54,205 nt of DNA from Nanobdellota archaeon (GTDB lineage: Archaea > Nanobdellota > Nanobdellia > Woesearchaeales > JACPBV01). The stretch lies in contig JAHJAV010000097.1 of NCBI GenBank assembly GCA_018813685.1, positions 1-54,205 on the forward strand, given 5' to 3'. Below the pieces are notes generated by a model. The model was not told the DNA's origin. It was given only the letters and a program-made list of their open reading frames with translations, and did not search any database. Each line of letters opens with the position of its first letter. The first letter of the stretch is position 1. Of this stretch, positions 15,730-54,205 are shown piece by piece. The translations under genes and the position numbers were made by a program.

Positions 15730-16859
15730 TCGATCCGCATGGGGGCAAGTTAATAAATCGCGAATTAACAGGTAATTCAAAGGAGAAAGCTATTGAAGAG
15801 TCAAATGAGATAAAAGGATTAACTGTGCATAGAGATACTTTACTTGATATAGGGAATATTGCTACAGGCGCTTTTAGCCCATTGAATGGTTTTGTTTTAC
15901 AGAATGATTTTATCTCAATAATCGAGAGCAATACACTTGAGAATGGAATTCCATGGACTATTCCAGTTACTTTTCCTGTTCAAGAGATTAAAGGCATAAG
16001 CGAGGGAGATGATGTTGCATTATTTGATGAATCTAAACGTCCAATTGCAATATTGCATCTAGAACAGATATATAAATTTAATTTCAACGAAGCAGCTAAA
16101 TCTATCTTTGGCACTATTGACCTTAATCATCCGGGTGTGAAAAAGATGTATGATATGGGGAATACTCTTCTTGGGGGGGAGGTAGATATGATCAATGTCC
16201 CTTCGCCTATTGTTGGTAAGTATGAGCTGACTCCTGAGCAAACAAGACAGAAGTTTAAGGAATTAGGTTGGAAAAGAATAGTTGGGTTCCAAACAAGGAA
16301 CGTGCCTCATACAGCGCACGAGTACCTGCAGAAAGCTGCATTGGAACTGACAGACGGCATATTATTGCACCCCCTTATTGGATGGAAGAAAAAAGGAGAT
16401 TATAAGCCGGAAACAATAATGAAGGGATATGAAGCATTAATCAAGTATTATTATCCAAAAAACAGGGCTGTATTATCAGCATTAACAACCCAGATGAGAT
16501 ATGCAGGGCCAAAAGAAGCTGTGTTTCATGCAATAATAAGAAAGAATTTTGGATGCACTCATTTTATTGTGGGGAGAGATCATGCAGGTGTAGGCAAATA
16601 TTATGATAAATATGCCGCACATAAAATTTTCGATACTATAGGAGATATAGAGATTGAGATATTAAAGCTTATGGGGCCTTATTTCTGCAAGCATTGCGGC
16701 CATATAACAACAGAAAAGACATGCCCTCACCCACCAGAGGAGCAGATACAGATAAGCGGGACAGTGATAAGGGATATGCTTTCAAAAGGTGAAATGCCCC
16801 CTAAAGAATTCATGAGGGAAGAGATTTCAAAGATGCTCAGCAAAGAGGACCTTAATTAA
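15726..16859 (+). CDS. sat: Sulfate adenylyltransferase (ATP sulfurylase)
   Basis: GAFSPLNGF, GFQTRNVPHTAHEYL, HFIVGRDHAGVG. ATGA overlap with pyk. Confidence 0.9.
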   Translation: MIDPHGGKLINRELTGNSKEKAIEESNEIKGLTVHRDTLLDIGNIATGAFSPLNGFVLQNDFISIIESNTLENGIPWTIPVTFPVQEIKGISEGDDVALFDESKRPIAILHLEQIYKFNFNEAAKSIFGTIDLNHPGVKKMYDMGNTLLGGEVDMINVPSPIVGKYELTPEQTRQKFKELGWKRIVGFQTRNVPHTAHEYLQKAALELTDGILLHPLIGWKKKGDYKPETIMKGYEALIKYYYPKNRAVLSALTTQMRYAGPKEAVFHAIIRKNFGCTHFIVGRDHAGVGKYYDKYAAHKIFDTIGDIEIEILKLMGPYFCKHCGHITTEKTCPHPPEEQIQISGTVIRDMLSKGEMPPKEFMREEISKMLSKEDLN

Positions 16860-16860
16860 A

Positions 16861-17388
16861 ATGAAAGGTTATACTATATGGTTTACTGGCTTATCAGGTT
16901 CCGGAAAGACTACAATAGCAAATAAACTTGCAGATATATTGAGGAAAAGAGGGAAATCATTAGTTGTTCTCGATGGTGATATAGTAAGAAAAACACTTTC
17001 TGCTGATTTAGGCTACACTAAGGGAGAGAGAGATAAACATATTACCAGGATAGTTCATGCCTGCGAGCTGATAACTAAGAATCATGTGATTAATATAGCG
17101 TGCGTTATCTCTCCTACCCGACATATTCGAAAGTATGCAAAAGACCTTATCGGGAAGGATAATTTTATTGAAGTTTATGTAAAATGCCCGCTTGAGGTTT
17201 GTGAAAAAAGAGATGTAAAGGGCCATTATGCAAAAGTCAGATCAGGGGAGATAGAACATTTTGTTGGGATCAATGTGCCTTATGAGGAGCCTTTGAACCC
17301 TGATTTAGTTCTTGAAACTGATAAAGAGAGTGTAACTGAGTCTGCAAATAAGCTTATTGATGAGATGGTAAGCAGGAAGATAATATGA
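16861..17388 (+). CDS. cysC: Adenylylsulfate (APS) kinase
   Basis: P-loop WFTGLSGSGKTTIA, LDGDIVR, 175 aa. Confidence 0.9.
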   Translation: MKGYTIWFTGLSGSGKTTIANKLADILRKRGKSLVVLDGDIVRKTLSADLGYTKGERDKHITRIVHACELITKNHVINIACVISPTRHIRKYAKDLIGKDNFIEVYVKCPLEVCEKRDVKGHYAKVRSGEIEHFVGINVPYEEPLNPDLVLETDKESVTESANKLIDEMVSRKII

Positions 17389-17426
17389 TCAGATGTTGAG
17401 TGCAGGATTTATTTACCTAAAATCAT

Positions 17427-17440
17427 AAGGTTTAAAAATA
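17427..17440 (+). promoter_or_regulatory. BRE/TATA box
   Basis: AAGGTTTAAAAATA. SD AGGAG (17469-17473) precedes ATG 17480. Confidence 0.45.
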
Positions 17441-17479
17441 GCTGTCTGATCTCAAGATTAAATTATACAGGAGATTTAA

Positions 17480-18298
17480 ATGAGCAAGGTATCATGGAAG
17501 GAAATTAAGGAATACCACCGGAAGAAACCGAAGAATATTTTTTTGTTAAGCTCTTATTTTGCACCCTATCTGACAAAATTACTTTTACATACATCTATCA
17601 CTGCAAATCAGGTTACATTTTTTTCATTTCTCTTTTCATTTATAGCTGTTCCTCTTATAGCGTTTGGGGATTATAAATGGACAATCATAGGGTCTGTTCT
17701 TCTACAGTTCATACTCATTATGGATGCTTCAGACGGCGCAATTGCCAGAATCAGGAAGACTACTGGAAAATTTAGTGCTTATTATGGTGGATTTATGCAT
17801 GATTTTATCCCTATATTTTTGATTATTGCAATGAGCATAAAATCTTACATATTTTTTGATAATTATATGTTTTTTATAGCTGGTATGATAACTATCACTG
17901 CGATGTTCTTGACAGGATACAGCAGATTTTACAAAGATAGGGTAGCAGTTAAATACATGTTAAGGTATGGTAAAAAACTGGTTTCGGATCAAGTAGTGGA
18001 TGTTCTGCCGAATCCTGTAATGCCCAATGAAGATGCGCTGCAAGATAAGACCAAAACAAAAAGCAATGTTGGTTTTATAGAAAAAAATGTTAAGAGATTT
18101 AGATTTATGGAAAAAATCATATTCTTTTTCAATTCATTCAGCCACTTGCTTGCTTTTGTATTGATGTTGTCTGTATTTAATATTCTTCATTATGCACTGT
18201 TCTTTTATGCCCCGTTTTACATTATCATATGTATACTAAAAGTTTATGTAGAGGTTAAGAAGGGGTTAAATGAATATGTTTTTGAGGACCGAAAATAG
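17480..18298 (+). CDS. CDP-alcohol phosphatidyltransferase-family membrane protein (divergent motif)
   Basis: ITANQVT...MDASDGAIARIRK. Polytopic. The distal G/D part of the family motif is irregular. Confidence 0.65.
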   Translation: MSKVSWKEIKEYHRKKPKNIFLLSSYFAPYLTKLLLHTSITANQVTFFSFLFSFIAVPLIAFGDYKWTIIGSVLLQFILIMDASDGAIARIRKTTGKFSAYYGGFMHDFIPIFLIIAMSIKSYIFFDNYMFFIAGMITITAMFLTGYSRFYKDRVAVKYMLRYGKKLVSDQVVDVLPNPVMPNEDALQDKTKTKSNVGFIEKNVKRFRFMEKIIFFFNSFSHLLAFVLMLSVFNILHYALFFYAPFYIIICILKVYVEVKKGLNEYVFEDRK

Positions 18299-18315
18299 AA
18301 AAATAATATAAACTA

Positions 18316-19227
18316 ATGTTAATTCGATTTTTAATTATGGCACAACTTAAAAAATATGTCGATTTGCACATACATACTGATGCTTCTGACGGGGCTCTTT
18401 CTGCTAAGGGTACTGTAAGGAAAGCCATAGAACATGGATTGAGCGCTATAGCTATAACAGACCACGATTCAATAGACAATGTGGCAATTGCTGTTAAGGA
18501 AGGCAAGAATCATGGGTTACTGATAGTTCCAGGTGTAGAACTTACAGTAGATGATTATAGAAATAATATAATTGATATACACATTTTGGGATTATTTATC
18601 GATATTCACAATAAACCTCTTAACCAATTGCTAATGATTTCGAAGAAAGAGAGGTTTAATCAGAAAAAATGCATTATAAATAAACTTCAGGCCCTGGGCT
18701 ATAAAATAAATTTTGAGGAAGTTAGGGAGACTGCAAAAGGGGAAATAGGAAGGTTGCATATAGCCCATGTTTTGTTGAAGAGAAATAAGCAGTTGAAGAA
18801 TCTAGGGTATATCTTTGAGCATCTGCTTGGGGTAGGGAAGCCTGCTTATGCAAGGAGGAAGCACGAAACAGGATTAAAAGAAGCGATTTCTGCAATACAT
18901 AGTGCAGGAGGAATTGCTGTTCTGGCGCACCCCTATCTGTACGATTCTGATTTTGATAATCTGATAAAAAAGTTTGTAGAAACAGGGGGGGATGGATTAG
19001 AGGTTTTTTATGCTTATGATAAAACAGCCAAATTCGAGAAGAAACCAAAAAATTATCTTGATAATTTGCAGTCTAGGCTAAAGAAGATAGCCTTAAAGAA
19101 TAACTTATCAATGTCAGGGGGAAGCGATTTTCATGGCCATGCCAGAAATAAGCGCATTGGATACCCTAAGATACCTTTGGAAGTAGTTGAACAGATGAAG
19201 AGGATGCCAATAAACAAGCGAATATAA
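18316..19227 (+). CDS. PHP-domain metal-dependent phosphoesterase (COG0613 TrpH/YciV-like)
   Basis: VDLHIHTDASDG...AITDHDS...GVEL...HILG...LAHP...GGSDFHG. ATG 18337 is an alternative start. Confidence 0.8.
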   Translation: MLIRFLIMAQLKKYVDLHIHTDASDGALSAKGTVRKAIEHGLSAIAITDHDSIDNVAIAVKEGKNHGLLIVPGVELTVDDYRNNIIDIHILGLFIDIHNKPLNQLLMISKKERFNQKKCIINKLQALGYKINFEEVRETAKGEIGRLHIAHVLLKRNKQLKNLGYIFEHLLGVGKPAYARRKHETGLKEAISAIHSAGGIAVLAHPYLYDSDFDNLIKKFVETGGDGLEVFYAYDKTAKFEKKPKNYLDNLQSRLKKIALKNNLSMSGGSDFHGHARNKRIGYPKIPLEVVEQMKRMPINKRI

Positions 19228-19247
19228 TCCAATTAGGTTCTACTATC

Positions 19248-19259
19248 TTTTTTATTTTT
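19248..19259 (+). terminator. Oligo-T tracts (T6 + T5)
   Basis: TTTTTTATTTTT lies 20 nt after the PHP gene stop. Confidence 0.4.
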
Positions 19260-19283: not shown

Positions 19284-19297
19284 AAAGATTTATAAAT
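19284..19297 (+). promoter_or_regulatory. BRE/TATA box of the phosphonate operon
   Basis: AAAGATTTATAAAT lies about 30 nt upstream of ATG 19320 (leaderless). Confidence 0.5.
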
Positions 19298-19319
19298 CTA
19301 CTAGTAGCACTAGTATAAC

Positions 19320-19877
19320 ATGAAAAAGATTGTTTGGCTTAATAAGTCAAATGGGCAGCTTTGCGTAACTATACCTAAAAATTCAGGCATAAAAGATGGA
19401 GATATAATTAATATTGAGAAAGAGAAGATTAAGACTATAATCTATTCCCCTATGATAGCAGACTTGTTTAATTATGGCCATTTAAGGCTGCTGCAAAGCG
19501 CAAATTCATTGGGGGATTTTCATATATGCGGTGTATTAACCAATGAAGCTGTGAGGTCTTACAGGGAGGAGCCAATTGCTGATTTCAGAGACAGGATGTC
19601 CATAATTTCAGCCCTTCAATGCATAGATATGGTGATGCCGCAGGATAATAGAGACCCAACTGAGAACCTGAAAAAGATTCATGAGCAATTCAGAAACTCA
19701 AAATTGATTTTAGTCAATGGATCAAACTGGAAAAAGGTCTATGGCAGCGGTTATATCAAAAAGATAGGGGGAGAAGTAGTCCAGCCTAAGTTTTATGATA
19801 AGCTTTCTTCCAAGAATATAATCGGGAAAATATTTAAAGTTTACAAGGGGGGCAAGGTGAAGAATTATGGCGAATAA
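19320..19877 (+). CDS. HxGH cytidylyltransferase (TagD/GCT-like) with an N-terminal AbrB/SpoVT-like domain
   Basis: Aa 1-35 have NGQLCVTIPKNSGIKDGDIINIEKE (swapped-hairpin type). These are followed by DLFNYGHLRLLQSANSLGD...CGVLTNEAV. Confidence 0.7.
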   Translation: MKKIVWLNKSNGQLCVTIPKNSGIKDGDIINIEKEKIKTIIYSPMIADLFNYGHLRLLQSANSLGDFHICGVLTNEAVRSYREEPIADFRDRMSIISALQCIDMVMPQDNRDPTENLKKIHEQFRNSKLILVNGSNWKKVYGSGYIKKIGGEVVQPKFYDKLSSKNIIGKIFKVYKGGKVKNYGE

Positions 19878-21273
19878 GATAAGAAAGATTCTTTTAGTGT
19901 CTCCAAGATACACTTTATTTAAAGATGATGTCAGAAGATGCGTTGCTCCAATAGGATTAGCCTATTTAGCAGCATTCTTAGAAAAAGACGGCTATGAAGT
20001 AAAAATATTGGATGCTGCAGCTGAAGGTTATGATAATGTTAAAATTCACGGTGAGTTTTTAACATACGGCTTAGATGATGAGGAAATAAGAAAAAAGATT
20101 ATTGAATTCAATCCAGATGTTGTAGGTGTTTCATGCATATTTTCTACCCAATACGAAAATGTAAAAAAAGTATTGAAACTTGTGGATGATATAGACCCAA
20201 ATATAACAACTATGGTCGGCGGTTCACATCCTACTTATGCTGTTGATGAAGTTCTTGATTTAGGCAATGTAGACTACATTGTTATGGGCGAGGCAGAGCT
20301 GTCCACATTGCAGCTTTTGAATACCCTGAACACTGGCGGTGATGTTTCTGAGATTGGTGGATTAGCTTACCGCAAAGACGGCAAAAATATATCGAACAAT
20401 AGGCTGCAATATATCCAGAATGTGGATGATCTGCCATCTCCTGCAAGGCATTTGCTCAATATGGAGCTCTATTTTAAAATAAATCTTCCTCAGAATCCCT
20501 ATACCTGCGGTAAGAGAGTTGCACAGGTAATCACATCCAGGGGGTGCCCTGCACGATGTGTTTTCTGTACAACAACAAATTTCTGGGGCAATCGTTACAG
20601 GGGAAGAAGTGCAGAAGGCGTTGTTAAGGAAATAAGGGAGCTTAAAGAGAAGTATAACATAGATGAAATCCAATTTACTGATGATAATTTAACATTGGAG
20701 AAAAAAAGGGCAATGGATATATTAGACGGCATAAAGAATCTTGGATTGATGTGGTGCCTGCCACAGGGGATTGCAGTATGGGCATTAGATGAGGAATTGC
20801 TTGAGAAAATGAAAGAGTCTGGGTGTTACCAGCTTACATTTGCAATTGAAAGCGGAAATCAGCATGTTTTGACTGATATAATAAAAAAACCACTGAATCT
20901 GGAGAAGGTGAAACCCTTGGTTAAAAAGGCACATGAGCTTGGTATAAACCTCCATGCTTTCTGCATTTGCGGATTGCCTGGAGAGACAGTAGAGCAGATG
21001 TATGAAACCTATAATTTTGTCCTTGATTGCGGTTTTGAAAGTGCATCTTTTTTTCTTGCAACCCCCTTGATAGGATCAGAACTGTTGAAAATATGCAGGG
21101 AAAAAGGCTATTTGAGTGAGGATATGACCTGCAACAAGCAATTATTTAAGATAGGCAATATAACCACCCCTGAGTTCAAAGCAGAGGAAATCCAGAGTTT
21201 AGTTGAACAATTTAATAGGGATTATAATCGCAATGATAAAAGGGAAAAAAGGTTTGAGGATGGAAAGTATTAA
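19867..21273 (+). CDS. Class B (B12-binding domain) radical SAM enzyme
   Basis: N-terminal Rossmann-like B12 domain (ILLVSP...PIGLAYLAAFL...VGVSC...GGSHPT) and SRGCPARCVFC (CX3CX2C). SD AGGTGA is present. Confidence 0.85.
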   Translation: MANKIRKILLVSPRYTLFKDDVRRCVAPIGLAYLAAFLEKDGYEVKILDAAAEGYDNVKIHGEFLTYGLDDEEIRKKIIEFNPDVVGVSCIFSTQYENVKKVLKLVDDIDPNITTMVGGSHPTYAVDEVLDLGNVDYIVMGEAELSTLQLLNTLNTGGDVSEIGGLAYRKDGKNISNNRLQYIQNVDDLPSPARHLLNMELYFKINLPQNPYTCGKRVAQVITSRGCPARCVFCTTTNFWGNRYRGRSAEGVVKEIRELKEKYNIDEIQFTDDNLTLEKKRAMDILDGIKNLGLMWCLPQGIAVWALDEELLEKMKESGCYQLTFAIESGNQHVLTDIIKKPLNLEKVKPLVKKAHELGINLHAFCICGLPGETVEQMYETYNFVLDCGFESASFFLATPLIGSELLKICREKGYLSEDMTCNKQLFKIGNITTPEFKAEEIQSLVEQFNRDYNRNDKREKRFEDGKY

Positions 21274-21300
21274 GATAATAACTTCGGAGGTCAATGAAAA

Positions 21301-22773
21301 ATGAGAATATTATTAGTGTATGCAAACAGTTTTATGGACAACTTAATACCTGTAGGGGTATCTTTGTTATCAGCCTGCCTGAAGAAAGCAGGCCATGAAA
21401 CCAAGCTTTTCGATACAACTTTTTATAGGACCAGGGAGAAAACCGGGGATGAGGCGAGAGTTGAAACTTTGCAGATAAGGGAAACGAAGCTTGATGATTA
21501 TGGGGTCCATGAAAAGAAAGCAGATGCAGTAGATGATTTTAAGAAACTTGTCGATGATTACAAGCCCGGCCTAATAGCTGTTTCTATTGTTGAGACGACC
21601 TACTTCATAGCGTTAAATCTGTTGAATGGGATTAAAGATTATGATATCCCTAAAGCGGTGGGCGGAATACATGCAACAATGGCTCCTGGGGAAGTGATAA
21701 AGGAAGAAGCGGTAGACATTGTCTGTGTAGGTGAAGGGGAAATTGCCCTTACTGAATTGGCAGACAGAATTGATAAAGGCACTGATTATTCTGACATTCC
21801 AAATCTATGGGTTAAGAATGATGGAAAAGTGATTGAAAATCCAGTTGGTCCCCTCGTTAAGCTTGATGATCTTCCTGATCAGGATTGGTCTATCTGGGAA
21901 AAAGAAAGATTCTATAAGCCAATGGGTGGAAAGGTGTGGATATGCGGCCCAATAGAATTTGACAGAGGATGCCCTCATCAATGCGCTTTTTGCTGTAATG
22001 CAGGACTTCAGAAATTATATAAACAGCATGGTTTTTATCCAAGGAGCAGGAGCGTTAAAAAGTTTATTGATGAGTTCAAGGGCAAACAAAAAAGATACGG
22101 ATTAAATTACCTCTTTGTCATGTCAGAGAATTTTTTTCAGGGCAATGGGAGATTTAATGAATTTGTAGAATTATATAGGGATATCAAGATACCATTTTGG
22201 GTTGAAACAAGACCTGAGACTGTTACAGAGGAGCGGCTTAAAATGCTAAAAGAAGTTGGGTGCGAGGGAATAAGTATGGGCGTTGAGCACGGAAATGACG
22301 AATATAGGAGAAAGGTTCTTAATAGGTTTGTATCCAATGATGCCATAATAAAAGGATTTCAAATGGCTATACATTCTGGAATAAGGGTTACAGCGAATAA
22401 TATTGTAGGTTATCCGGAAGAGACCAGGGAGCTGTTTTTTGATACTGTTGAAGTGAACAGGCAGATCAAAGGGGCATATACTATGATAAACATATTCAGC
22501 CCTCACAGGGGAACTTCCTTATGGAAGCTGGCTGTCGAAAAGGGATATATACCCAAAGATACATTTGCAGGTGATTACCGTCTTGATAGTGGAATAGATA
22601 TGCCTCATTTGAGCAAGGAAGCTATTAAGGGACTGCAGAGAACTTTTAGGCTGTATGTTTATCTTCCAAAAGAGATGTGGCCTGAAATTGAAAGGGCTGA
22701 AAAGTTTGATGAAGAGGGGAATAAGGCTTTTGAAAGATTAAGCAAGATTTATATGGAAAAATATATGAAATGA
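21301..22773 (+). CDS. Class B (B12-binding domain) radical SAM enzyme
   Basis: ILLVYAN...PVGVSLLSACL...GGIHAT and DRGCPHQCAFC. Confidence 0.85.
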   Translation: MRILLVYANSFMDNLIPVGVSLLSACLKKAGHETKLFDTTFYRTREKTGDEARVETLQIRETKLDDYGVHEKKADAVDDFKKLVDDYKPGLIAVSIVETTYFIALNLLNGIKDYDIPKAVGGIHATMAPGEVIKEEAVDIVCVGEGEIALTELADRIDKGTDYSDIPNLWVKNDGKVIENPVGPLVKLDDLPDQDWSIWEKERFYKPMGGKVWICGPIEFDRGCPHQCAFCCNAGLQKLYKQHGFYPRSRSVKKFIDEFKGKQKRYGLNYLFVMSENFFQGNGRFNEFVELYRDIKIPFWVETRPETVTEERLKMLKEVGCEGISMGVEHGNDEYRRKVLNRFVSNDAIIKGFQMAIHSGIRVTANNIVGYPEETRELFFDTVEVNRQIKGAYTMINIFSPHRGTSLWKLAVEKGYIPKDTFAGDYRLDSGIDMPHLSKEAIKGLQRTFRLYVYLPKEMWPEIERAEKFDEEGNKAFERLSKIYMEKYMK

Positions 22774-22787
22774 TAACGGGGTGAAAA

Positions 22788-24098
22788 ATGAAAAAAGTCT
22801 ATGTTGGAATGAGGGCCGATATAATACATCATGGGCATTTGAAAATTATTCAAGAGGCAAGAAAGCTTGGAGAGGTTACAATAGGATTACTTACTGATAA
22901 GGCTGCAGCGAGCTATAAGAGAATGCCTTTTTTTTCGTATGAGCACAGAAAGATGATACTTGAGAATATTATCGGAGTGAAAGAAGTTATTTCTCAGGAG
23001 ACATTAGATTATGTGCCCAATCTAATGAGATTAAAGCCTGATTATGTTGTCCATGGAAATGACTGGAAGACAGGGGCTCAGAAGGAAGTAAGGAAGAGGG
23101 TAATAAGTGTACTCAAAGAATGGGGCGGCAAACTTGTAGAGCCTGATTTTACAAAAGATGTTTCTTCAAGCCAGATCGCTGAAGAATTGTTTGAGCTTGG
23201 CACTACTCCCGGGGCAAGGATGAAAAAATTAAGAAGATTATTGGAACTTAAGCCGATTGTAAGGGTGTTAGAGGTGCATAACGGGCTTACCGGAAGGATT
23301 GTAGAAAAAACGAGAGTGGTTGAAGGAGATAATGTTCGTGAATTTGAATGCATGTGGCTGAGCAGTTTGACTGATTCAACTGCAAAAGGAAAACCCGATT
23401 CAGGATGTGTTGATTTCACTTCTCGTGTGAATACCCTTAACCAGATATTTGAAGTTACAACTAAACCAATGATTGTCGATGCTGATAATGGCGGACTAAC
23501 AGAACATTTTGTGTTTATGGTTAAGACCATGGAGAGGTTAGGAGTTTCTGCTGTTATAATTGAAGATAAGGTAGGTGCAAAAAGGAATTCTCTTTTTGGA
23601 GCTGAGGTTGAACAGGAGCAGGATGAAATTGAGATGTTTTCAGACAAGATATCTTCTGGCAAGAAAGCTCAGGTTACAGAAGACTTTATGATAATTGCAA
23701 GGATTGAGAGTTTGATATTGAATAAAGGAATGGAAGATGCTTTAAAGAGAGCTAAAGCTTATATTGATGCGGGAGTTGACGGCATAATGATACACAGCAA
23801 GAAGAAAGATTTTCAGGAGATACTTGAGTTTTGCAGAGAGTATAAACAGTTTGAGAATAAGGTTCCTCTTGTGGCTGTGCCTTCAACCTATAGCTCTATA
23901 ACTGAAGAAGAGCTTATTGGTGCAGGGGTTAGCATAGTGATTTATGCGAACCAATTGCTTAGGAGCGCTTATCCTGCAATGGTGAATACAGCAGAGACAA
24001 TACTTAAGAACCACAGGGCTCTTGAATCAGAAGAGCAGTGCATGCCGATAAAGGAAATATTGAGTTTGATACCTGCTGTTTGTACGGGTGGTAAATAA
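22788..24098 (+). CDS. pepM: Bifunctional cytidylyltransferase / phosphoenolpyruvate mutase (Fom1-type architecture)
   Basis: N-terminus has ADIIHHGHLKII (HxGH). The C-terminal isocitrate-lyase-fold domain carries the PepM-diagnostic EDKX5NS motif, EDKVGAKRNS (nt 23562-23591). Confidence 0.88.
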   Translation: MKKVYVGMRADIIHHGHLKIIQEARKLGEVTIGLLTDKAAASYKRMPFFSYEHRKMILENIIGVKEVISQETLDYVPNLMRLKPDYVVHGNDWKTGAQKEVRKRVISVLKEWGGKLVEPDFTKDVSSSQIAEELFELGTTPGARMKKLRRLLELKPIVRVLEVHNGLTGRIVEKTRVVEGDNVREFECMWLSSLTDSTAKGKPDSGCVDFTSRVNTLNQIFEVTTKPMIVDADNGGLTEHFVFMVKTMERLGVSAVIIEDKVGAKRNSLFGAEVEQEQDEIEMFSDKISSGKKAQVTEDFMIIARIESLILNKGMEDALKRAKAYIDAGVDGIMIHSKKKDFQEILEFCREYKQFENKVPLVAVPSTYSSITEEELIGAGVSIVIYANQLLRSAYPAMVNTAETILKNHRALESEEQCMPIKEILSLIPAVCTGGK

Positions 24099-24113
24099 AT
24101 AGTGGTGATATCT

Positions 24114-25235
24114 ATGATCTCATGCGAAAAGTTATATGAAATATTCAAAAAAAATGAGCTAACTTTTTTTACAGGAGTTCCAGATTCAATTTTTAAGGAT
24201 TGGATGAAGTTTCTGGCAGATGAGCATGGTGGGAGGGTTACAAATATTATTGCTTGCAATGAATGCGAGGCTGTTGCGACTGCTGCGGGCTATAATCTAG
24301 CTACTGGAAAGATAGGGGTAGTTTATATGCAGAATTCTGGCGAGGGTAAAACTGTAAATCCACTTACTTCTTTGTGTGATAAAGAGGTTTATTCTATTCC
24401 TGTTCTGCTGATGATAGGGTGGAGAGGGGAGCCTGGCAAGAAAGATGAGCCGCAGCATAAAAAGATGGGGAGGATAACCATTAATCTGCTCGAGACTTTG
24501 GAGATACCTTATGAAATATTGCCTACTGATGAAGAAGATATTGTAAAATCTATTGCAAAGATGAAGGAGCTTGCTGAGCAGGAAATCAAGCCAGTTGCAT
24601 TGATTGTAAGAAGCGGAATATTGAAAGAATATGAATCAAAGAAAAAGGTCAAAACAAATTATGAAATGGCTAGGGAGGATGCAATTAAATCGATTGTAGA
24701 TAATCTAGATGGGAGCGAGCCTATTGTTTCGACAACCGGCAAGACTTCAAGGGAGCTATTTGAATATAGGGTTGCTAAGGGACAAAAACCATGTGATTTT
24801 TACACTGTAGGTAGCATGGGATGTTGCGTATCAATTGCAAACGGAATAGCTTTGCAGAAACCTTCAAAAAAGGTATTTGTTTTTGACGGTGATGGGGCTG
24901 TGATTATGCAGATGGGGGCTTTGGCTACTGTAGGGCATTATAGGCCAAAGAATCTTTATCATATAGTTTTTGATAATGGAAGTTATGATTCAACTGGGGG
25001 GCAGCCGACTGTTTCTGTTTCTGTTGATTTTGGGAAAGCAGCTTTAGCTTGCGGATATAAGGCTGCAAAGACTGTTGAGAAAAAGGCTGATCTTATCCAG
25101 GCTGTAAACGAGATGAGAGCTTCTGACGGCCCGCAGATGCTTATTGTTAAAGTGAATAAGGGAGCAAGAAAAGATTTAGGGAGGCCTACTACTACACCTG
25201 TTGAGAATAAAAAAGAATTTATGAAGAAATTATGA
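24114..25235 (+). CDS. ppd: Phosphonopyruvate decarboxylase (ThDP-dependent)
   Basis: FFTGVPDS N-terminus and the ThDP motif GDGAVIMQMGALATVG...VFDNGSYDSTGGQ. About 375 aa. ATG 24114 has SD GGTGAT; GTG 24102 is an alternative start. Confidence 0.85.
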   Translation: MISCEKLYEIFKKNELTFFTGVPDSIFKDWMKFLADEHGGRVTNIIACNECEAVATAAGYNLATGKIGVVYMQNSGEGKTVNPLTSLCDKEVYSIPVLLMIGWRGEPGKKDEPQHKKMGRITINLLETLEIPYEILPTDEEDIVKSIAKMKELAEQEIKPVALIVRSGILKEYESKKKVKTNYEMAREDAIKSIVDNLDGSEPIVSTTGKTSRELFEYRVAKGQKPCDFYTVGSMGCCVSIANGIALQKPSKKVFVFDGDGAVIMQMGALATVGHYRPKNLYHIVFDNGSYDSTGGQPTVSVSVDFGKAALACGYKAAKTVEKKADLIQAVNEMRASDGPQMLIVKVNKGARKDLGRPTTTPVENKKEFMKKL

Positions 25236-26374
25236 AACAAAAAGAATTTTTTGGAAAGGATTCAATCTACAAGCTGAAGGAGATTCTTGATGAACATAAA
25301 CCTAAGTCTATCTTTTTAGTCACTGGCAAAAGTTCTTATGAAAAGAGCGGGGCTAGTGGGAAATTAGGTGAGATGCTCAAAGGATATAATGCGATTCATT
25401 TTACTGATTTTAATCCCAACCCAAAATTAGAGGAGATAGAGAACGGGTTAAATATTTTCAGGGAAAATAAATGCGATTTTTTAATCGCTGTCGGTGGAGG
25501 GAGCCCGATTGATGTTGCGAAGTCAGTGAGCATATTGGATGCTAATCCAGGGGATGCTGTCGATTATATAAACAAAAAGAGAAAGATAGAGAAAAAAGGC
25601 AAGATACTGGTTGCTATACCTACTACCTCTGGCTCTGGAAGTGAAGCTACTTATTTTATTGTATTTTATAAGGGCAAGACCAAGTGCTCTCTTGGGCATG
25701 AGGAGTTTACACTGCCTGATTATGCTATTGTAGACCCAGTTTTGACAGATAGCCTTCCAAAATACCAGACAGCATGCACTGGAATGGATGCTTTGGGCCA
25801 GGCAATTGAATCTTACTGGTGTGTAGATTCTACAGAAGAGTCAAAGAATTATGCTGCTGAAGCAATAAAGCTTGCTATGGAATTTCTTGAAGAAGCTGTC
25901 AACAATCCATCATATAAGGCGAGAGAAGCAATGGCTAAATCTGCTAACCTAGCCGGAAAGGCAATAAACATATCGAGGACAACTGCCTGCCATGCTGTTG
26001 CGTATCCAATAACTTCTTATTTTGGAATACCTCATGGGCATGCTGTTGGTTTGACTATACCTTCTATGCTAGTGCATAATTATAGAGTTAATGAGGGTGA
26101 GCTGCTTGATAAAAGGGGGATTTCTTATGTTAAGAAGACAATTGAGGAAATATCCAGTTTAGTTGGCGCTAAGACAGTTGATGAGGCAGCTAAAAAGATA
26201 AATGAGCTGATGAGCCGGATAGGACTTAAAATAAGACTTTCTGAGCTTGATATTAAAACTGAATCTGACAGAGAGATAATACTCAAGAATGGATTTAATC
26301 CTGGGAGGGTTAAGAATAATCCTAGGGTGTTAACAGAAGAAGCTTTGAGGGTAATTATATCAGAAATCGACTAA
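25232..26374 (+). CDS. Group III iron-containing alcohol dehydrogenase (phosphonoacetaldehyde reductase-type, FomC/PhpC-like by context)
   Basis: VGGGSPIDVAK and the His-rich metal site HAVAYPITSYFGIPHGHAVG. Overlaps the ppd stop. Confidence 0.8.
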   Translation: MKQKEFFGKDSIYKLKEILDEHKPKSIFLVTGKSSYEKSGASGKLGEMLKGYNAIHFTDFNPNPKLEEIENGLNIFRENKCDFLIAVGGGSPIDVAKSVSILDANPGDAVDYINKKRKIEKKGKILVAIPTTSGSGSEATYFIVFYKGKTKCSLGHEEFTLPDYAIVDPVLTDSLPKYQTACTGMDALGQAIESYWCVDSTEESKNYAAEAIKLAMEFLEEAVNNPSYKAREAMAKSANLAGKAINISRTTACHAVAYPITSYFGIPHGHAVGLTIPSMLVHNYRVNEGELLDKRGISYVKKTIEEISSLVGAKTVDEAAKKINELMSRIGLKIRLSELDIKTESDREIILKNGFNPGRVKNNPRVLTEEALRVIISEID

Positions 26375-27081
26375 TAAGCCAATTTTTTCTTGGCTATCTC
26401 TAAATCTTCCAATGTGTCGATTTCCATGCAGAATTCATTTCCGAAATAGACTGGTTTCAGCCTGATCTCTTTTGAAATCTCATTGAAGGCATTTTCTGAG
26501 TATACCTCGGTTTTGCCTTCCTTAACAAACCTTTCAATTTCCTGCATCCACCTCAGGAAAGCATCTTTTGAGAAGATGTATATCGGTGCAAGGAAAAAGC
26601 AGTTTTTACCGGAAATATCAACACCTATTTCTTTTAAAATTCCATCTTCTACCCTTCCTTTGAAATCCTTTTCCGGTGGCTCTTTTTCATTATTCAGTAG
26701 GACGGCATTTTTTTCTTTACTTTTTAAAAGTCTTTTCAATAAAACCCTGTCAAAAACCATGTCGCTGTGCATCAATAATATGTCGTCATCAATCTTATCT
26801 TTAGCCATAAACATGGAGTAGATATAGTTTGTTTCTTCGTATTTTGGATTTTTTACATATTCTACATTAAATTTAGGATAATTTTTTTTCATAAATTCCA
26901 GTATCTTTTCTTCAAACGGGCCTGTAGTTATTATAGCTCTTTTGATGCCTACTGACCAGAGATGGTCAAGTTCATGCCCAAGGATTGTTTTTCCATTTAA
27001 TTTAATCAAGCACTTTGGAATTTCGTCTGTTAAAGGATACATCCTGCTTCCAACTCCTGAAGCCAAAATCATAGCTTTCAT
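26371..27081 (-). CDS. LicC/MobA-like NTP-transferase (phospho-alcohol or phosphonate cytidylyltransferase candidate)
   Basis: MKAMILASGVGSRMYPLTDEIPKCLIKLNGK. SD GGGTGA precedes ATG 27081. Confidence 0.75.
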   Translation of the reverse strand: MKAMILASGVGSRMYPLTDEIPKCLIKLNGKTILGHELDHLWSVGIKRAIITTGPFEEKILEFMKKNYPKFNVEYVKNPKYEETNYIYSMFMAKDKIDDDILLMHSDMVFDRVLLKRLLKSKEKNAVLLNNEKEPPEKDFKGRVEDGILKEIGVDISGKNCFFLAPIYIFSKDAFLRWMQEIERFVKEGKTEVYSENAFNEISKEIRLKPVYFGNEFCMEIDTLEDLEIAKKKLAY

Positions 27082-27094
27082 AATAATCACCCTG

Positions 27095-28537
27095 TTATTT
27101 TTTTTGACCTGACCATGGAATAAACGATTTTACTACATCTATCTCTTCTTTTCCAAAGCCGCCCATCACAAATAATGCGGCAAAATAACCCATTGCTGCC
27201 AAGGGAATTATGTATATTACCGGCATGAACTTGATGTATATGACTAAAGCACCCATAATGATGCCTGCAATAATCGGCTTATAGCTTATTTTGATTAGAT
27301 TTAAGGGATAATTGTTTTTTGTTGTGAAATAGTAGAGAATACCAAAGCTTATGATTTGTGTGATTACTGTTGCCACTGCCGCCCCAATATAACTGAATCT
27401 TGGAATCAATACAATATTTAGTATTACTGCCGATGTTGTGCAGATAACAGTGGATGCAGTAAACAATTTCTGCTTGTTTATCGAATTGAGCAGATAGCCC
27501 ATGTTTTCGTTTAGGAATATAAGGACTATTACAACAGATGATATTGCAAGGATCTTTCCTGATTCTATAAACTGTTCCTTGTACATCCAGAGGATTATCT
27601 GGTTGGCCAGCAGACTTACTCCTATGCTTATAGGTATGCCTATCACAAGCAGATAATAGAATGATTGTTTATACAGCCTTTTTAGATAATCCTTGGAATC
27701 TGTATGGTGGAATCTTGACATTGCAGGAAATGTTGCATGGGTTATTACAGATGGAATAAAAGTAAGGGCTGTAATCAGGGTTGATGATGCGTTATACCAT
27801 CCTGTAGCCTGATAGCTTTTCATCGCTGTGAGCATTACTGTGCTTATCTGGTAATATATCCTCTGGAAAATCATTGTAAACCAGAACGGCCAGGAATTTG
27901 TCAGGAGGGAATGCCACATCTTATAGTCAAATGACAGGGATAATTTTACAAATTTCCTGTAAGAAACTATATAACAATAGACTGAAGTAATTAGTTTTGA
28001 GGCAATAAGGGCCAATAGTAGGGTGTATATTCCATTTCCAGTCATAAGTACATAAGCGCTAAAACCTAAAGAAAATATCCTTTCAATTGAAGTATAGTAA
28101 AACACAAACTGATTTTTTTCAAATGCTTTGAATACTATCCCCATCAGGGTGTTGAACGCATTAAAAAGTTCGTGAACCATAACAAGGAGAATCACCGGCA
28201 GAATCTCATTTGTTTTAGGCCATGCCAATGCAATCAGGACTGAGATTAAATAAGACACTATTGTAATGGCAAATTTCAATGTGAGTGTGTTATTAACAAG
28301 GCTTTCTGCTTTTGACTTGTCTTTTGCAATTTCCCTAAATATATAGACTGTAAGGCCCATATGTGAAATCATAGTCACCAGACCGATAAAAGCAAAGGCA
28401 AAAGAGTATTTTCCGAATCCTATACTTCCAAGATACCTTGTTATGATTATAACCAGCACCAAAGAAATTATTTTGTTTATTATCTCTGTTGAAAATAGGA
28501 ATCCTGCGTTTTTTGCTATAGTCCTTGCCGATGACAT
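27095..28537 (-). CDS. Wzx-type (MOP superfamily) polysaccharide/oligosaccharide flippase
   Basis: 480 aa with about 12-14 TM segments. Typical N-terminus IAKNAGFLFSTEIINKIISLVLVIIITRYLG..GFGKYSFA. Confidence 0.8.
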   Translation of the reverse strand: MSSARTIAKNAGFLFSTEIINKIISLVLVIIITRYLGSIGFGKYSFAFAFIGLVTMISHMGLTVYIFREIAKDKSKAESLVNNTLTLKFAITIVSYLISVLIALAWPKTNEILPVILLVMVHELFNAFNTLMGIVFKAFEKNQFVFYYTSIERIFSLGFSAYVLMTGNGIYTLLLALIASKLITSVYCYIVSYRKFVKLSLSFDYKMWHSLLTNSWPFWFTMIFQRIYYQISTVMLTAMKSYQATGWYNASSTLITALTFIPSVITHATFPAMSRFHHTDSKDYLKRLYKQSFYYLLVIGIPISIGVSLLANQIILWMYKEQFIESGKILAISSVVIVLIFLNENMGYLLNSINKQKLFTASTVICTTSAVILNIVLIPRFSYIGAAVATVITQIISFGILYYFTTKNNYPLNLIKISYKPIIAGIIMGALVIYIKFMPVIYIIPLAAMGYFAALFVMGGFGKEEIDVVKSFIPWSGQKK

Positions 28538-28539
28538 AT

Positions 28540-29919
28540 TTACAGAGACCTCTTAAGATAATTAATTACAAAACCAGGCCTTTTTAAAATATATTTCACC
28601 AGTTTCTTAAACTCGCCGAATGAAGTGAAATACCTTAACATCAGCTGCCTGTTGTTTAAGCTGTAGATCTTTTTCCTGTAATGTTTCAAATCTTTATCAG
28701 TAATGTGCTCCAATTTTATCAATGAATGCTTAGCATAGTAATCAATATCTCCTTCAATGAGCTGATTATTCTTTTTTAATAGGTCGTATAGGTCATTGCC
28801 TGGGTAGGGTACTGCGGTAAACACATCCAGGCCGTCTGGCTTTATTTTTTTGATCAATTGATAAGTATCTTCCAAATCTTCTTTTGTTTCGATTGGAGCT
28901 CCAATCATGAAGTATGCGAATGTCTTTATCTTAAGGTCTTTGCAGAGATTAAATGCTTTTACTGCCTGTTCGGGTGTTGTGCCTTTTCTGTAATAGTTTA
29001 GTATCTTCTGAGATCCAGATTCAACTCCAAATGATATATGGCTTAATCCTGATTCTTTCATTGTCTTCAGAAGGTCAAAATCAACATTATCGATTCTAGT
29101 ATGGCAGCCCCAGTCTATGCTGAGCTTTCTTTTTTCAAGCTCATTCTTGAACTCTTTGAACCATTCCAATCCACAAAGAGTTAGAGTGTCATCTTTGAAC
29201 CATAACTTTACCATGCCTTTGAACAAATGACTATATCTTTTGACTATTTCTTCGATTTCTTCCACTACGTTTTTTGCGCTTCTTTTTCTTACCCTATTTC
29301 CAAATAACTTGTCTACCATTGGCTTACAGTAAAGGCAATTGTATGGGCAGCCCCTTGTTGCTATTATCCCTATTTCTGTTGTACCTGTCTTGAAATATTT
29401 TTCATAATCCCATAACTCTCTTGAAGGGAATGGAAGCTCATCTAGATCATGTACAAATGATTTTTTTTGATTTATCCTTGTTTTGTTGTTATCTTTAAAT
29501 GCAATGCCATCTATTTCGCTTATTGGAATTTTTTTTTCTATGTTATCTGCTAGTTTTGCTGTTGTATCTTCGCCTTCCCCTATTATCACATAATCAAATC
29601 CTTGGTTAAGGGCTTCTTCTGGTGATAATGTTCCATGAGAGCCTCCAAGAAAGCAAGGGATTTTTGGATTTGTTTCTTTTATTATTTGCAGTGCTTTTTT
29701 TGAGTGGTCAAAGATTAGTGAAGTTGAACTCATGCCTATAAGGTCTGATTCTTTGGCTGCTTTTCTTAATTCATCTTCATTTTTATCGAATGTTAAGTCT
29801 ATCAAATTTACTTCATGGCCTTTGCTTTTTAGAGATGATGCTATATACAAGATACCTAATGGTTCCTGGAGCCCGGATGGGTCTTCACTGAATCCCGGAT
29901 AAATCAATGTTATTTTCAT
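28540..29919 (-). CDS. Class B (B12-binding domain) radical SAM enzyme
   Basis: ITLIYPG...PLGILYIASSL...GGSHGT and TRGCPYNCLYC. Confidence 0.85.
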   Translation of the reverse strand: MKITLIYPGFSEDPSGLQEPLGILYIASSLKSKGHEVNLIDLTFDKNEDELRKAAKESDLIGMSSTSLIFDHSKKALQIIKETNPKIPCFLGGSHGTLSPEEALNQGFDYVIIGEGEDTTAKLADNIEKKIPISEIDGIAFKDNNKTRINQKKSFVHDLDELPFPSRELWDYEKYFKTGTTEIGIIATRGCPYNCLYCKPMVDKLFGNRVRKRSAKNVVEEIEEIVKRYSHLFKGMVKLWFKDDTLTLCGLEWFKEFKNELEKRKLSIDWGCHTRIDNVDFDLLKTMKESGLSHISFGVESGSQKILNYYRKGTTPEQAVKAFNLCKDLKIKTFAYFMIGAPIETKEDLEDTYQLIKKIKPDGLDVFTAVPYPGNDLYDLLKKNNQLIEGDIDYYAKHSLIKLEHITDKDLKHYRKKIYSLNNRQLMLRYFTSFGEFKKLVKYILKRPGFVINYLKRSL

Positions 29920-30944
29920 TTTATACCTTCCCTATAAACTTTTAGATGATCTTTTGCTATTTTTTCCCAATTTGCAACCTTTCTATACTCTTCGATTCCT
30001 TTTTTATATCTGCTGTAATTATTCAACACTTCCTTTATCCCTTCTGCAAGTGCTTTTGGGCTTTTGGGCTTTACTACTTCTCCAAACCTAAATAAGTCTA
30101 CCATCTCCCATAATGCGCCTGTTTTGGCTGCCACTACAGGAAGGCCGAATGCAACTGCATTGTGTAGTATTCCTGATTGATATGGCGCCCACACATGAGG
30201 TAGGACCACTAAATCTGCGTTGTTATAATATTGAGATTTCTTATGCTCATCAATCCATCCAAACTCTGTTTTTATTTCTGCTTTTGAAAATTTTAGTTGG
30301 GATTTAATCTCTTTTTCTATTTTTTTATCTACAAAATTACCAGTTATTGTTAGTTTGCAATCAGGAAGATAATCCATTGCCTTTATGAGATATTCTACAC
30401 CTTTGTTTTTTGATATCATGCCGAAACAGAGAAGATTATTACCTTTTCTTTTGTGCGTTTTAAAAAGATTCAGTCCATGATATATGTATCTTATATTATG
30501 CGCCTTGTATTTCTTTTCCAGGAATTCTTTTTGTTTGGGGGTGTGTATGATAACTAAATTCGATTTCTTTATTATCTGCCTTTCAATAGATTCGAGAATA
30601 CTGTCTTTTAAGTTTCTTATTAAATAGTGCACTTCGTGAAGCGTTACTATGACTGGAATTGGAAGGCTCAATGCACTTAACAGGTTAAGGTTTAATATTT
30701 TACTGAAGAATGGTGCTACATATTGTATGTGTATTGCATCCAAATTTTCTTTTTTGATTATATTTTCCAAATCTTTCTTTAGGGAAAATGACCTGAAATC
30801 AATGATATAGTCTGCTTTACTCCCTTTTCTTCCTATTGTGACAATGTCTTTTCTTTTCCCCCCTAATCCAATCAGGATGTTGTTTGAATATATTGCAATT
30901 CCATCTTTTTCAGGGAGAAATGGGCTTAATAATCCTATTTTCAT
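29916..30944 (-). CDS. Glycosyltransferase family 4
   Basis: GT-B C-terminal pattern ADLVVLPHVWAPYQSGILHNAVAFGLPVVAAKTGAL. Confidence 0.8.
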   Translation of the reverse strand: MKIGLLSPFLPEKDGIAIYSNNILIGLGGKRKDIVTIGRKGSKADYIIDFRSFSLKKDLENIIKKENLDAIHIQYVAPFFSKILNLNLLSALSLPIPVIVTLHEVHYLIRNLKDSILESIERQIIKKSNLVIIHTPKQKEFLEKKYKAHNIRYIYHGLNLFKTHKRKGNNLLCFGMISKNKGVEYLIKAMDYLPDCKLTITGNFVDKKIEKEIKSQLKFSKAEIKTEFGWIDEHKKSQYYNNADLVVLPHVWAPYQSGILHNAVAFGLPVVAAKTGALWEMVDLFRFGEVVKPKSPKALAEGIKEVLNNYSRYKKGIEEYRKVANWEKIAKDHLKVYREGIK

Positions 30945-54029: not shown

Positions 54030-54205
54030 ATGACAGATGTACTTTTTATAGTTCCTCCTTTCAGCTATAAGGAACTTGATGATGCAAGCTCAAGGTGTCC
54101 TAATCTAGGTGTTGCTATGCTTGCTGCTGTGTTGGAGCAGCATAAATATGATGTAAAGATACTTGATGTTTTTGCTCTTGACTTAAAGGATAATGAAGTT
54201 GTTGA
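54030..54205 (+). CDS. N-terminus of a fifth class B radical SAM enzyme (partial, runs off the window)
   Basis: MTDVLFIVPPFS...CPNLGVAMLAAVLEQHKYDVKILD matches the B12-domain N-termini of the other four paralogs. Confidence 0.55.
   Translation, partial: MTDVLFIVPPFSYKELDDASSRCPNLGVAMLAAVLEQHKYDVKILDVFALDLKDNEVV

Follow-up and report, generated by a model that had tools for sequence, protein, structure and literature searches.

A Fom1/Fom3-like CMP-phosphonate cassette in an archaeal surface-glycan island, a candidate source of cell-surface phosphonates

The window analysed here is a 54,205-nucleotide stretch of DNA from a Nanobdellota archaeon (contig JAHJAV010000097.1), and it carries on its + strand a cassette of six genes resembling the early part of the fosfomycin pathway. 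The six open reading frames (ORFs) are listed in Table 1; genes 1 and 2 overlap by 11 nt and genes 5 and 6 by 4 nt, and the gaps between the others are, in order, 27, 14, and 3 nt. A first-pass annotation made from the sequence alone had described six tightly coupled genes, and its coordinates and spacing all matched ours. It had read them, in order, as an AbrB-fused cytidylyltransferase (CyTase), two B12-dependent radical S-adenosylmethionine (rSAM) enzymes, a CyTase fused to phosphoenolpyruvate (PEP) mutase, a thiamine diphosphate-dependent phosphonopyruvate decarboxylase, and a group III iron alcohol dehydrogenase (Fe-ADH). Profile searches agreed with the last five identities, both rSAM genes having B12-binding and Radical_SAM domains and gene 6 having Fe-ADH domains; gene 1 is taken up below. 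The GC content of the cassette (0.386-0.396 over positions 20001-26000) is higher than that of the rest of the window (0.32-0.365), which could reflect either constraint on conserved enzymes or horizontal acquisition. An identical cassette is present on contigs of two metagenome-assembled genomes (MAGs; GCA_018816725.1 and GCA_043811255.1), and the closest named homologues come from MAGs of Woesearchaeota and Nanoarchaeota, i.e. DPANN archaea.

Table 1. Position and annotation of the cassette genes, of the sequence elements in front of them, and of other features of the window
Feature	Position	Strand	Annotation
TATA-like box TTTATAAAT	19289..19297	+	sequence reading; 23 nt upstream of the gene 1 ATG
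Operator-like repeat TACTAGTA-GC-ACTAGTA	19299..19315	+	between the TATA-like box and the gene 1 start codon
Copies of TACTAGTA-NN-ACTAGTA in other loci	L084 9433-9449; L085 9434-9450; L086 11705-11721; L095 1862-1878; L088 10450-10466		
Gene 1	19320..19877	+	PF01467 cytidylyltransferase-like domain, 36.8 bits; extra N-terminal domain of about 39 residues
Gene 2 (rSAM1)	19867..21273	+	B12-binding and Radical_SAM; Fom3-like, class B; predicted 2-HEP-CMP C-methyltransferase
Gene 3 (rSAM2)	21301..22773	+	B12-binding and Radical_SAM; class B, not Fom3-like
Gene 4 (Fom1-type bifunctional enzyme)	22788..24098	+	PF01467 and PEP_mutase (PF13714)
Gene 5 (phosphonopyruvate decarboxylase, Fom2/Ppd)	24102..25235	+	TIGR03297
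Gene 6 (group III iron alcohol dehydrogenase)	25232..26374	+	Fe-ADH domains; predicted phosphonoacetaldehyde reductase (FomC/PhpC role)
LicC/IPCT/PntC-like cytidylyltransferase	26371..27090	-	PF12804/PF00483; convergent with the Fe-ADH gene
Wzx-type flippase	27095-28537	-	Pfam; opens a glycosyltransferase block with rSAM3
Third B12 rSAM gene (rSAM3)	28540-29919	-	Pfam
Further B12-binding rSAM gene	43594-45057		
Further B12-binding rSAM gene	54093-54203		partial, at the window edge
CDP-alcohol phosphotransferase homologue 1	17480..18298	+	PF01066, 25.7 bits; candidate for phosphonyl transfer, located two genes upstream of the cassette; DASDGAIAR...GGFMHDFIPI, last Asp missing
CDP-alcohol phosphotransferase homologue 2	31827-32501	-	PF01066, 33.6 bits; DVTDGILAG..GEWIDGVCD, R replaced by G
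CDP-alcohol phosphotransferase homologue 3	32503-33153	-	PF01066, 29.6 bits; DTMDGTLAR..GKYLEAVWH, D3 replaced by E and D4 by H
Winged helix-turn-helix-fused pyruvate kinase, ATP sulfurylase, adenosine-5'-phosphosulfate (APS) kinase, and PHP-family gene	14023-19227	+	directly upstream of the cassette

As a reference we used the best of the genome contigs recovered with the Fom1 CyTase domain as bait, that of Streptomyces sp. NPDC057623 (locus L001). It holds a genuine fosfomycin cluster, in the order B12 rSAM, helix-turn-helix-cupin protein (HppE type), amino-acid-kinase family protein (FomA type), Fom1, Fom2, and FomC, and its Fom1 CyTase domain is 86% identical to the counterpart of S. wedmorensis. 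Gene 4 has the features of a Fom1-type bifunctional enzyme and is predicted to have 2-hydroxyethylphosphonate (HEP) cytidylyltransferase activity. Its PEP mutase part scored 393.1 bits with TIGR02320, above the curated equivalog cut-off of 319.55, and the translation of positions 23562-23591 reads EDKVGAKRNS. This is the EDKX5NS motif that sets PEP mutase (PepM) apart from the rest of the isocitrate-lyase superfamily. The columns of the catalytic motif and of the metal ligands were invariant in comparison with the Streptomyces Fom1 ortholog and with PDB entry 5unc. Thus the fusion and its motif were as first described, and the equivalog score and intact columns speak against a PepM-like domain lying outside true PepM, an outcome that the first-pass annotation had asked to be checked. 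The CyTase domain carries HHGH, of the HxGH type, and is 56% identical (E 8e-47) to the crystallised HEP cytidylyltransferase domain of Fom1 (PDB 5x3d); gene 4 as a whole is 57% identical to the Streptomyces Fom1 ortholog. Gene 5 scored 463.9 bits with TIGR03297 (curated equivalog cut-off, 312.5) and is 43% identical to the Fom2 ortholog of L001. Gene 6 is 34% identical to FomC of L001; its score with the PsrA family model was 178.7 bits, below the cut-off of 423.7.

The protein of gene 2, rSAM1, has a CxxxCxxC motif at residues 227-234 (C227-x3-C231-x2-C234) and matches the Fom3 of L001 along its full length at 42% identity (409 bits, E 2e-142), without the N-terminal extension of about 90 residues found in the Streptomyces Fom3 ORF. 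To place it, 228 homologues were aligned with MAFFT and a neighbor-joining (NJ) tree was built, with 200 bootstrap replicates on 75 taxa; the set was assembled without Sden_1168 or PhpK sequences. Three groups emerged: a DPANN clade containing rSAM1 (n = 66), a Fom3 clade (n = 46) made of Streptomyces and Micromonospora Fom3 and diverse bacterial proteins, and a third clade (n = 18) in which more Nanoarchaeota proteins are found. Bootstrapping recovered the rSAM1 clade in 94% and the Fom3 clade in 100% of the replicates. The two were sisters in 81%, and rSAM1 paired with the 18-member clade in 11.5%. This tree joined rSAM1 to the Fom3 lineage, and the protein appears, from its sequence and its neighbours, to be a class B rSAM sister to Fom3 and encoded beside the counterparts of Fom1, Fom2, and FomC. 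About 66 DPANN cluster representatives (at 90% identity), together with bacterial relatives, carry an enzyme of the rSAM1/Fom3 type.

How much each gene says about the pathway became clear from its distribution. A scan of genome contigs with the Fom1 CyTase domain recovered the fusion, 66-86% identical, across many phyla: Actinomycetota, Proteobacteria, Bacteroidota, Planctomycetota, Kiritimatiellia, Patescibacteria, Methanobacteriota, and Woesearchaeota. Of the 80 loci with such a fusion, nearly all carry Ppd, and in about 69 an Fe-ADH follows Ppd. CyT-PepM, Ppd, and Fe-ADH together are a general HEP/HEP-CMP module and not one specific to fosfomycin, in agreement with published inventories (PMC6697681, PMC8942020). 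Because this triad is spread through loci of so many phyla, it is by itself uninformative on fosfomycin. Of the proposal that the cassette has the architecture of the early fosfomycin pathway, the four counterparts stood, including the Fom3-like rSAM1, and the triad as a signature did not.

For rSAM1 the picture was different. A metagenome scan with the rSAM1/Fom3 alignment gave 80 further loci, and 87 loci fetched with rSAM homologues were compared. PEP mutase lay near every rSAM at least 54% identical to rSAM1 (where the flanks were adequate) or at least 57% identical to Fom3, and it was found near none of the approximately 60 loci with more distant rSAM relatives. HppE and FomA occurred only in two loci, those whose rSAM is 76-86% identical to Fom3. 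This pattern indicates that the phosphonate linkage belongs to exactly the rSAM1 and Fom3 lineages, and since these are also sister clades, the Fom3-like rSAM1 appears to be the informative gene of the cassette.

Comparison of gene neighbourhoods, also among the checks initially suggested, showed that the cassette is syntenic in other DPANN genomes. Three DPANN loci (L084, L085, and L086) contain an rSAM1 ortholog (55-71% identical), a gene 1 ortholog (66-71%), CyT-PepM, Ppd, Fe-ADH, and an rSAM2 ortholog (34-40%). The order rSAM1, CyT-PepM, Ppd, Fe-ADH is kept in these three and in L095 and L102, the last being a minimal version with these four genes and neither gene 1 nor rSAM2. Most of these loci are flanked by glycosyltransferases, flippases, or PMT-type genes, and L084-L086 have CDP-OH_P_transf genes. 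With this gene set in at least four other DPANN contigs, the cassette is not a chance arrangement.

Three proteobacterial loci, L090 (a Telmatospirillum MAG), L171 (GCA_016307145.1), and L172 (Neorhizobium), have a Fom3-clade rSAM 57-59% identical to Fom3. All three carry CyT-PepM, Fe-ADH, a PhyH oxygenase, and a gene of the EPSP_synthase/MurA family; Ppd is encoded in L171 and L172; L171 also has an AA-kinase (FomA-like) and a NUDIX gene, and L090 and L172 have CDP-OH genes. None of the three has HppE. Their gene content makes them possible antibiotic clusters of a fosfomycin-like kind that use another oxygenase and a resistant copy of the target.

The window itself holds none of the enzymes that finish an antibiotic. 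A Pfam search of every ORF of at least 110 residues in the window revealed no cupin/HppE, 2-oxoglutarate oxygenase, DUF402, NUDIX, AA-kinase, or class-V aminotransferase, and when all ORFs of the L001 fosfomycin cluster were compared with the window by tblastn (E 1e-3), only Fom1, Fom2, Fom3, and FomC were matched. HppE (Fom4), FomA, FomB, and FomD have no counterpart in the window, which does not contain a complete fosfomycin cluster. A route to 2-aminoethylphosphonate (AEP) was rejected, the sole aminotransferases of the window being sugar aminotransferases of the DegT type. The reported absence of a FomD hydrolase, HppE, a HepD/MpnS-type dioxygenase, and an AEP transaminase held in these searches.

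In fosfomycin biosynthesis, Fom1, Fom2, and FomC lead to 2-HEP-CMP, Fom3 methylates its C2 to give (2S)-2-hydroxypropylphosphonate (2-HPP)-CMP, and Fom4 forms the epoxide once FomD has hydrolysed the CMP ester (PMC8158854). The same work gives 31P signals of about 14-15 ppm for HEP-CMP and HPP-CMP. The module described here belongs to the known nucleotidyl-activated HEP branch; it is early-fosfomycin-like and is not a fosfomycin cluster. We propose, with a probability of roughly 55%, that the cassette would make a CMP-activated hydroxyalkylphosphonate for decoration of the cell surface and not for an antibiotic. From family membership, PEP would be converted to phosphonopyruvate by the PEP mutase domain, phosphonopyruvate to phosphonoacetaldehyde by Ppd, phosphonoacetaldehyde to HEP by the Fe-ADH, and HEP to HEP-CMP by the Fom1-type CyTase domain. 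Orthology and synteny suggest that rSAM1 would then methylate C2 of HEP-CMP to yield 2-hydroxypropylphosphonate-CMP, and context suggests that rSAM2 may modify the phosphonate further, by a second alkylation or another radical reaction. With neither an epoxidase nor a hydrolase of the FomD type in the window, the CMP ester would presumably be kept as the activated donor. A membrane transferase, for which the CDP-alcohol phosphotransferase homologues are candidates, could pass the phosphonyl group on to a lipid-linked glycan or a lipid, at a hydroxyl, and the product would be flipped by Wzx and displayed on the surface. The transfer step seems the weakest link of this pathway. In its essentials, this is what the first-pass annotation had put forward, namely Fom1/Fom2/FomC/Fom3 logic without finishing enzymes in an archaeal glycan island, and the identity and sister relation to Fom3, the synteny, and the missing finishing enzymes all favour it. 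Searches of the open-access literature found no description of Fom3 homologues in surface pathways or of phosphonate biosynthesis in DPANN, consistent with the view that the route had not been described.

The second rSAM is another matter. At 21% identity to Fom3, rSAM2 is not Fom3-like, which leaves rSAM1 as the only Fom3-like one of the two. An NCBIfam search of rSAM2 yielded no close family, the Sden_1168 model giving 52.3 bits, and the family around it is large and uncharacterised (2270 representatives at E<1e-30, with best identities of 47-48%). Orthologs 34-46% identical adjoin the cassette or rSAM1 in L084, L085, L086, L094, and L096, so that rSAM2 appears to be a conserved accessory partner of rSAM1 in DPANN. 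That it lies so close to rSAM1 and the PepM genes, and does so repeatedly, argues for an action of rSAM2 on the phosphonate.

Gene 1 only partly corresponded to the AbrB-fused HxGH cytidylyltransferase that had been proposed. The PF01467 domain was found, and its best PDB match was the Fom1 CyTase domain (46 bits), whereas the motif at residues 50-53 is NYGH and not HxGH. At this position L086 also has NYGH, L084 has HYGY, and L085 has HYGH, the orthologs in these three loci being 65-70% identical. Among the orthologs, conservation is strong in the roughly 39 extra residues at the N-terminus. Matches to AbrB/MazE-type proteins were sub-threshold only: MazE_PemI of NCBIfam gave 18.9 bits (cut-off 50), and PF04014 gave 12.2 bits (E 0.19) on the isolated N-terminus, in one of four gene 1 orthologs. 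A single-sequence AlphaFold2 model of gene 1 had a confidence (pLDDT) of 35 and was uninformative.

Upstream of gene 1, an oligo-T stretch (about 19240-19259) follows the preceding gene, and then come a TATA-like box and an operator-like repeat (Table 1). The box, TTTATAAAT, probably has a promoter role; an equivalent, TTTAAATA, is aligned in four other genomes. A sigma-70 promoter scan found sites no commoner than in shuffled sequences, with a model that is unsuited to an archaeon. The repeat TACTAGTA-NN-ACTAGTA lies 3-4 nt 5' of the ATG in every gene 1 ortholog (L084, L085, L086/L095, and L088). It occurs once in the window, against 0.09 copies expected, and once per locus, and 2.28 Mb of other fetched loci contained only two further matches, each with two mismatches. 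In L086, where gene 1 does not head the cassette, the repeat still goes with gene 1, and no copy is present in L102, which is without gene 1. The L088 contig, which carries a more distant relative of rSAM1, ends 18 nt past the repeat and the start of an MKKVV ORF (10450-10484); the apparent absence of PepM from that locus is probably an artefact of the contig end. Since the HxGH position is variable and a conserved repeat sits at its promoter in five genomes, gene 1 is a possible regulator. We tentatively suggest, at slightly less than even odds, that it is an autoregulator of the operon that would act through TACTAGTA-NN-ACTAGTA at its own promoter and use the cytidylyltransferase-like domain as the sensor, perhaps of a nucleotide or of the CMP-phosphonate. 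Alternatively, gene 1 may be a second catalytic cytidylyltransferase.

The whole 54-kb window is a surface-glycan island. The Wzx flippase, glycosyltransferases, LicC-like nucleotidyltransferase, and CDP-alcohol phosphotransferases reported as neighbours of the cassette were all confirmed by Pfam or PDB matches. The block downstream also contains a GT4 glycosyltransferase, a methyltransferase, a DUF2079 protein, and a DegT aminotransferase, and elsewhere in the window are a UDP-glucose dehydrogenase, sugar nucleotidyltransferases, epimerases of the GDP-mannose dehydratase type, more glycosyltransferases, and PMT_2 and DUF6541 membrane proteins. The top PDB matches of the LicC-like protein were LicC (1jyk), IPCT (2xme), and PntC (6pd1), with 51-58 bits; in L086/L095 the Fe-ADH gene is immediately followed, on its own strand, by a 57% identical ortholog of this gene. 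The three CDP-alcohol phosphotransferase homologues all pass the PF01066 gathering threshold (22 bits), and genes of this family recur beside the cassette, three times in the window and also in L084, L085, L086, L090, and L172. The protein of rSAM3 is 25% identical to Fom3. Five or more B12 rSAM genes are thus gathered in a single island of an organism whose genome is presumably small; L084 and L085 carry four to five as well.

Several of these findings weigh against the proposed surface pathway. At least five B12-binding rSAM genes lie in the 54-kb glycan island, one of them partial at its edge, so that some or all may act on sugars. The 42% identity of rSAM1 to Fom3 fixes neither substrate nor regiochemistry, the two clades were joined as sisters by a distance tree whose internal branch is short (the 81% bootstrap value), and the large family of rSAM2 has no known function. 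None of the three PF01066 proteins of the window has the complete signature D-x2-D-G-x2-A-R-x(7-12)-G-x3-D-x3-D (Table 1); among the neighbours of the cassettes, it is seen in full in L086 and L090 alone. Another protein may therefore be the transferase, or there may be none. Support for an AbrB-type fold at the N-terminus of gene 1 stays below threshold. Lastly, with L090, L171, and L172 looking like antibiotic clusters, the nearest non-DPANN relatives are not all surface pathways.

We considered the possibility that HEP-CMP is transferred unmodified, as for an ordinary HEP phosphonoglycan, and that the rSAMs methylate sugars or other parts of the glycan. HEP itself is a known decoration of the Stackebrandtia exopolysaccharide (PMC8942020), the triad occurs without any rSAM in almost all of the 80 genome loci, and this possibility would account for the five or more B12 rSAM genes scattered over the island and for the presence of less close rSAM1 relatives in glycan clusters that lack PepM. 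Yet, it would not explain why rSAM1 is specifically related to Fom3, why no clades but those of rSAM1 and Fom3 are linked to PepM, and why rSAM1 is coupled to the PepM operon, with overlaps or gaps of tens of nucleotides, in every adequately flanked DPANN locus. We therefore regard the transfer of plain HEP as unlikely, though deserving of attention. A sub-variant of the surface pathway is that the CDP-alcohol phosphotransferase homologues move the CMP-phosphonate to a lipid of the archaeol or diacylglycerol type, forming a phosphonolipid head group. The three PF01066 proteins of the window are most similar to archaetidylinositol-phosphate synthase and DIPP synthase, such genes lie beside the cassette in the five other loci named above, and phosphonolipids are the proposed products of a large group of Burkholderiales PepM clusters that contain CDP-OH genes (PMC8942020). 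However, the copies in the window have incomplete catalytic signatures, and the surrounding flippase, glycosyltransferases, sugar-nucleotide enzymes, and PMT-type proteins fit a glycan carrier better, which makes a lipid carrier rather improbable.

That the product is instead a diffusible phosphonate, fosfomycin-like or another antibiotic, with finishing enzymes that are unrecognised or encoded elsewhere, would be in keeping with the four genes common to the fosfomycin cluster and with the proteobacterial members of the Fom3 clade, whose MurA-like, PhyH, and, in one case, AA-kinase and NUDIX genes suggest an antibiotic with self-resistance. We consider it very unlikely in view of the position of the cassette within glycan genes in four independent DPANN contigs and of a window devoid of an oxygenase, a cupin, a candidate CMP-ester hydrolase (DUF402/NUDIX), a resistance kinase, or a typical exporter. 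The suggestion that one of the rSAMs is a P-methyltransferase of the PhpK/Sden_1168 type, which would make a phosphinate, fared worst. The best NCBIfam match of rSAM1 is indeed the Sden_1168 P-methyltransferase family (NF038361), but its 363.6 bits are far under the cut-off of 575, and genuine Fom3 gives 293 bits and Fom3 and the neighbouring clades 277-365 bits with the same model. Since they score alike, the match of rSAM1 is at the level of the superfamily only. With the PhpK family (TIGR04479, cut-off 600), rSAM1 and rSAM2 reached 113 and 60.6 bits. An H-phosphinate is the required substrate for P-methylation by PhpK, a step of phosphinothricin biosynthesis. The window does not encode the known route to this compound (carboxyphosphonoenolpyruvate mutase and the associated steps), and no phosphinothricin-type genes for it were seen. 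With the substrate route missing and the family cut-offs missed widely, we attach almost no credence to P-methylation, which the first-pass annotation had raised as one option.

Comparison with known systems helps to define what would be distinctive in the proposed surface pathway. The cassette shares four enzyme types with the early fosfomycin pathway of Streptomyces (57, 43, 34, and 42% identity for Fom1, Fom2, FomC, and Fom3, respectively), but it is archaeal, lies among glycan genes, lacks HppE, FomD, FomA, and FomB, and includes one more rSAM as well as an additional CyTase-like gene preceded by an operator-like site. The HEP phosphonoglycan clusters of Stackebrandtia nassauensis and Glycomyces have the same triad and the same presumed role in decorating an extracellular polysaccharide (HEP conjugate: PMC8942020); a Stackebrandtia MAG (L002) and a Woesearchaeota genome (L066) are among the triad loci. 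Those clusters, however, are without a Fom3-like rSAM, whereas here HEP-CMP is probably C-methylated before use. In Nitrosopumilus maritimus, too, an archaeal PepM-Ppd-alcohol dehydrogenase series leads via HEP to a polysaccharide-bound phosphonate (PMC8942020, PMC9381506). There, the oxygenase MpnS cleaves HEP to methylphosphonate; the window has no cupin or oxygenase, and the tailoring enzyme is predicted to be an anaerobic B12 rSAM methylase. The AEP clusters with PntC and CDP-alcohol transferases (Rice et al. 2019, Li and Horsman 2022) have in common with the cassette a nucleotidyl activation, a PF01467 or PF12804 domain fused to or beside PepM, a CDP-OH_P_transf gene nearby, and a proposed surface role (PMC6697681, PMC8942020). 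They differ in having an AEP transaminase, while the cassette has no class-V transaminase and would branch at HEP, with radical methylation. Finally, the Sden_1168 and PhpK P-methyltransferases belong to the same class B rSAM superfamily as rSAM1, which differs by scoring far below their cut-offs and by the lack of a route to a P-H substrate in the window.

Decoration of cell surfaces with phosphonates is common, and few of these groups have been chemically identified. Isolated products of the HEP branch number only two (PMC8942020). If the proposed surface pathway is correct, it would provide a new natural phosphonate moiety on a cell surface and would extend the methylation of phosphonates by B12 rSAM enzymes to archaea. 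It would also give a much wider biological role to Fom3, which to our knowledge has so far been known only from an antibiotic pathway, and an evolutionary explanation of why this enzyme works on a CMP ester. DPANN archaea depend on contact with host cells, and a hydrolysis-resistant surface group could matter for their attachment or protection. The conserved operator and the sensor-like gene 1 form a putative regulatory unit that is directly testable. A bolder version of these ideas, which we consider speculative and would sooner doubt than accept, is that DPANN archaea decorate surface glycans or lipids with 2-hydroxypropylphosphonate, or a further alkylated relative, with the HPP-CMP from a Fom3 orthologue serving directly as donor; that the puzzling transient cytidylylation in the fosfomycin pathway is a relic of such tailoring, the antibiotic route having arisen by the addition of a hydrolase and an epoxidase; and that gene 1 represents a new type of transcription factor, whose sensor domain, derived from a cytidylyltransferase, reads CTP or CMP-phosphonate and which binds TACTAGTA-NN-ACTAGTA.

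A few other features of the window deserve mention. The PHP-family protein encoded upstream of the cassette resembles a 3',5'-nucleoside bisphosphate phosphatase (pAp-phosphatase-like), so that the genes at 14023-19227 amount to a complete set for the supply and recycling of 3'-phosphoadenosine-5'-phosphosulfate (PAPS); its position beside the cassette is not conserved in L084-L086, and no recognisable sulfotransferase is encoded within the window. By analogy with the biosynthesis of O-methyl phosphoramidate (MeOPN) in Campylobacter, we considered that APS kinase and the pAp phosphatase might make a 3'-phospho-CMP-phosphonate donor. This idea was set aside because a canonical ATP sulfurylase gene lies about 1 nt upstream of the APS kinase gene and the module is not conserved in those loci. 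Between the GT4 and CDP-OH genes, an ORF of 301 residues (30941-31846, - strand) had no significant family match and a faint one (18.5 bits) to polysaccharide deacetylases; in L084, a Polysacc_deac_1/DUF2334 gene adjoins the CDP-OH gene. At the left end of the window are a gene for an NFACT-family protein (1030-2226) and a free-standing ORF with a LAGLIDADG domain (3508-4317), both apparently unrelated to the glycan genes.

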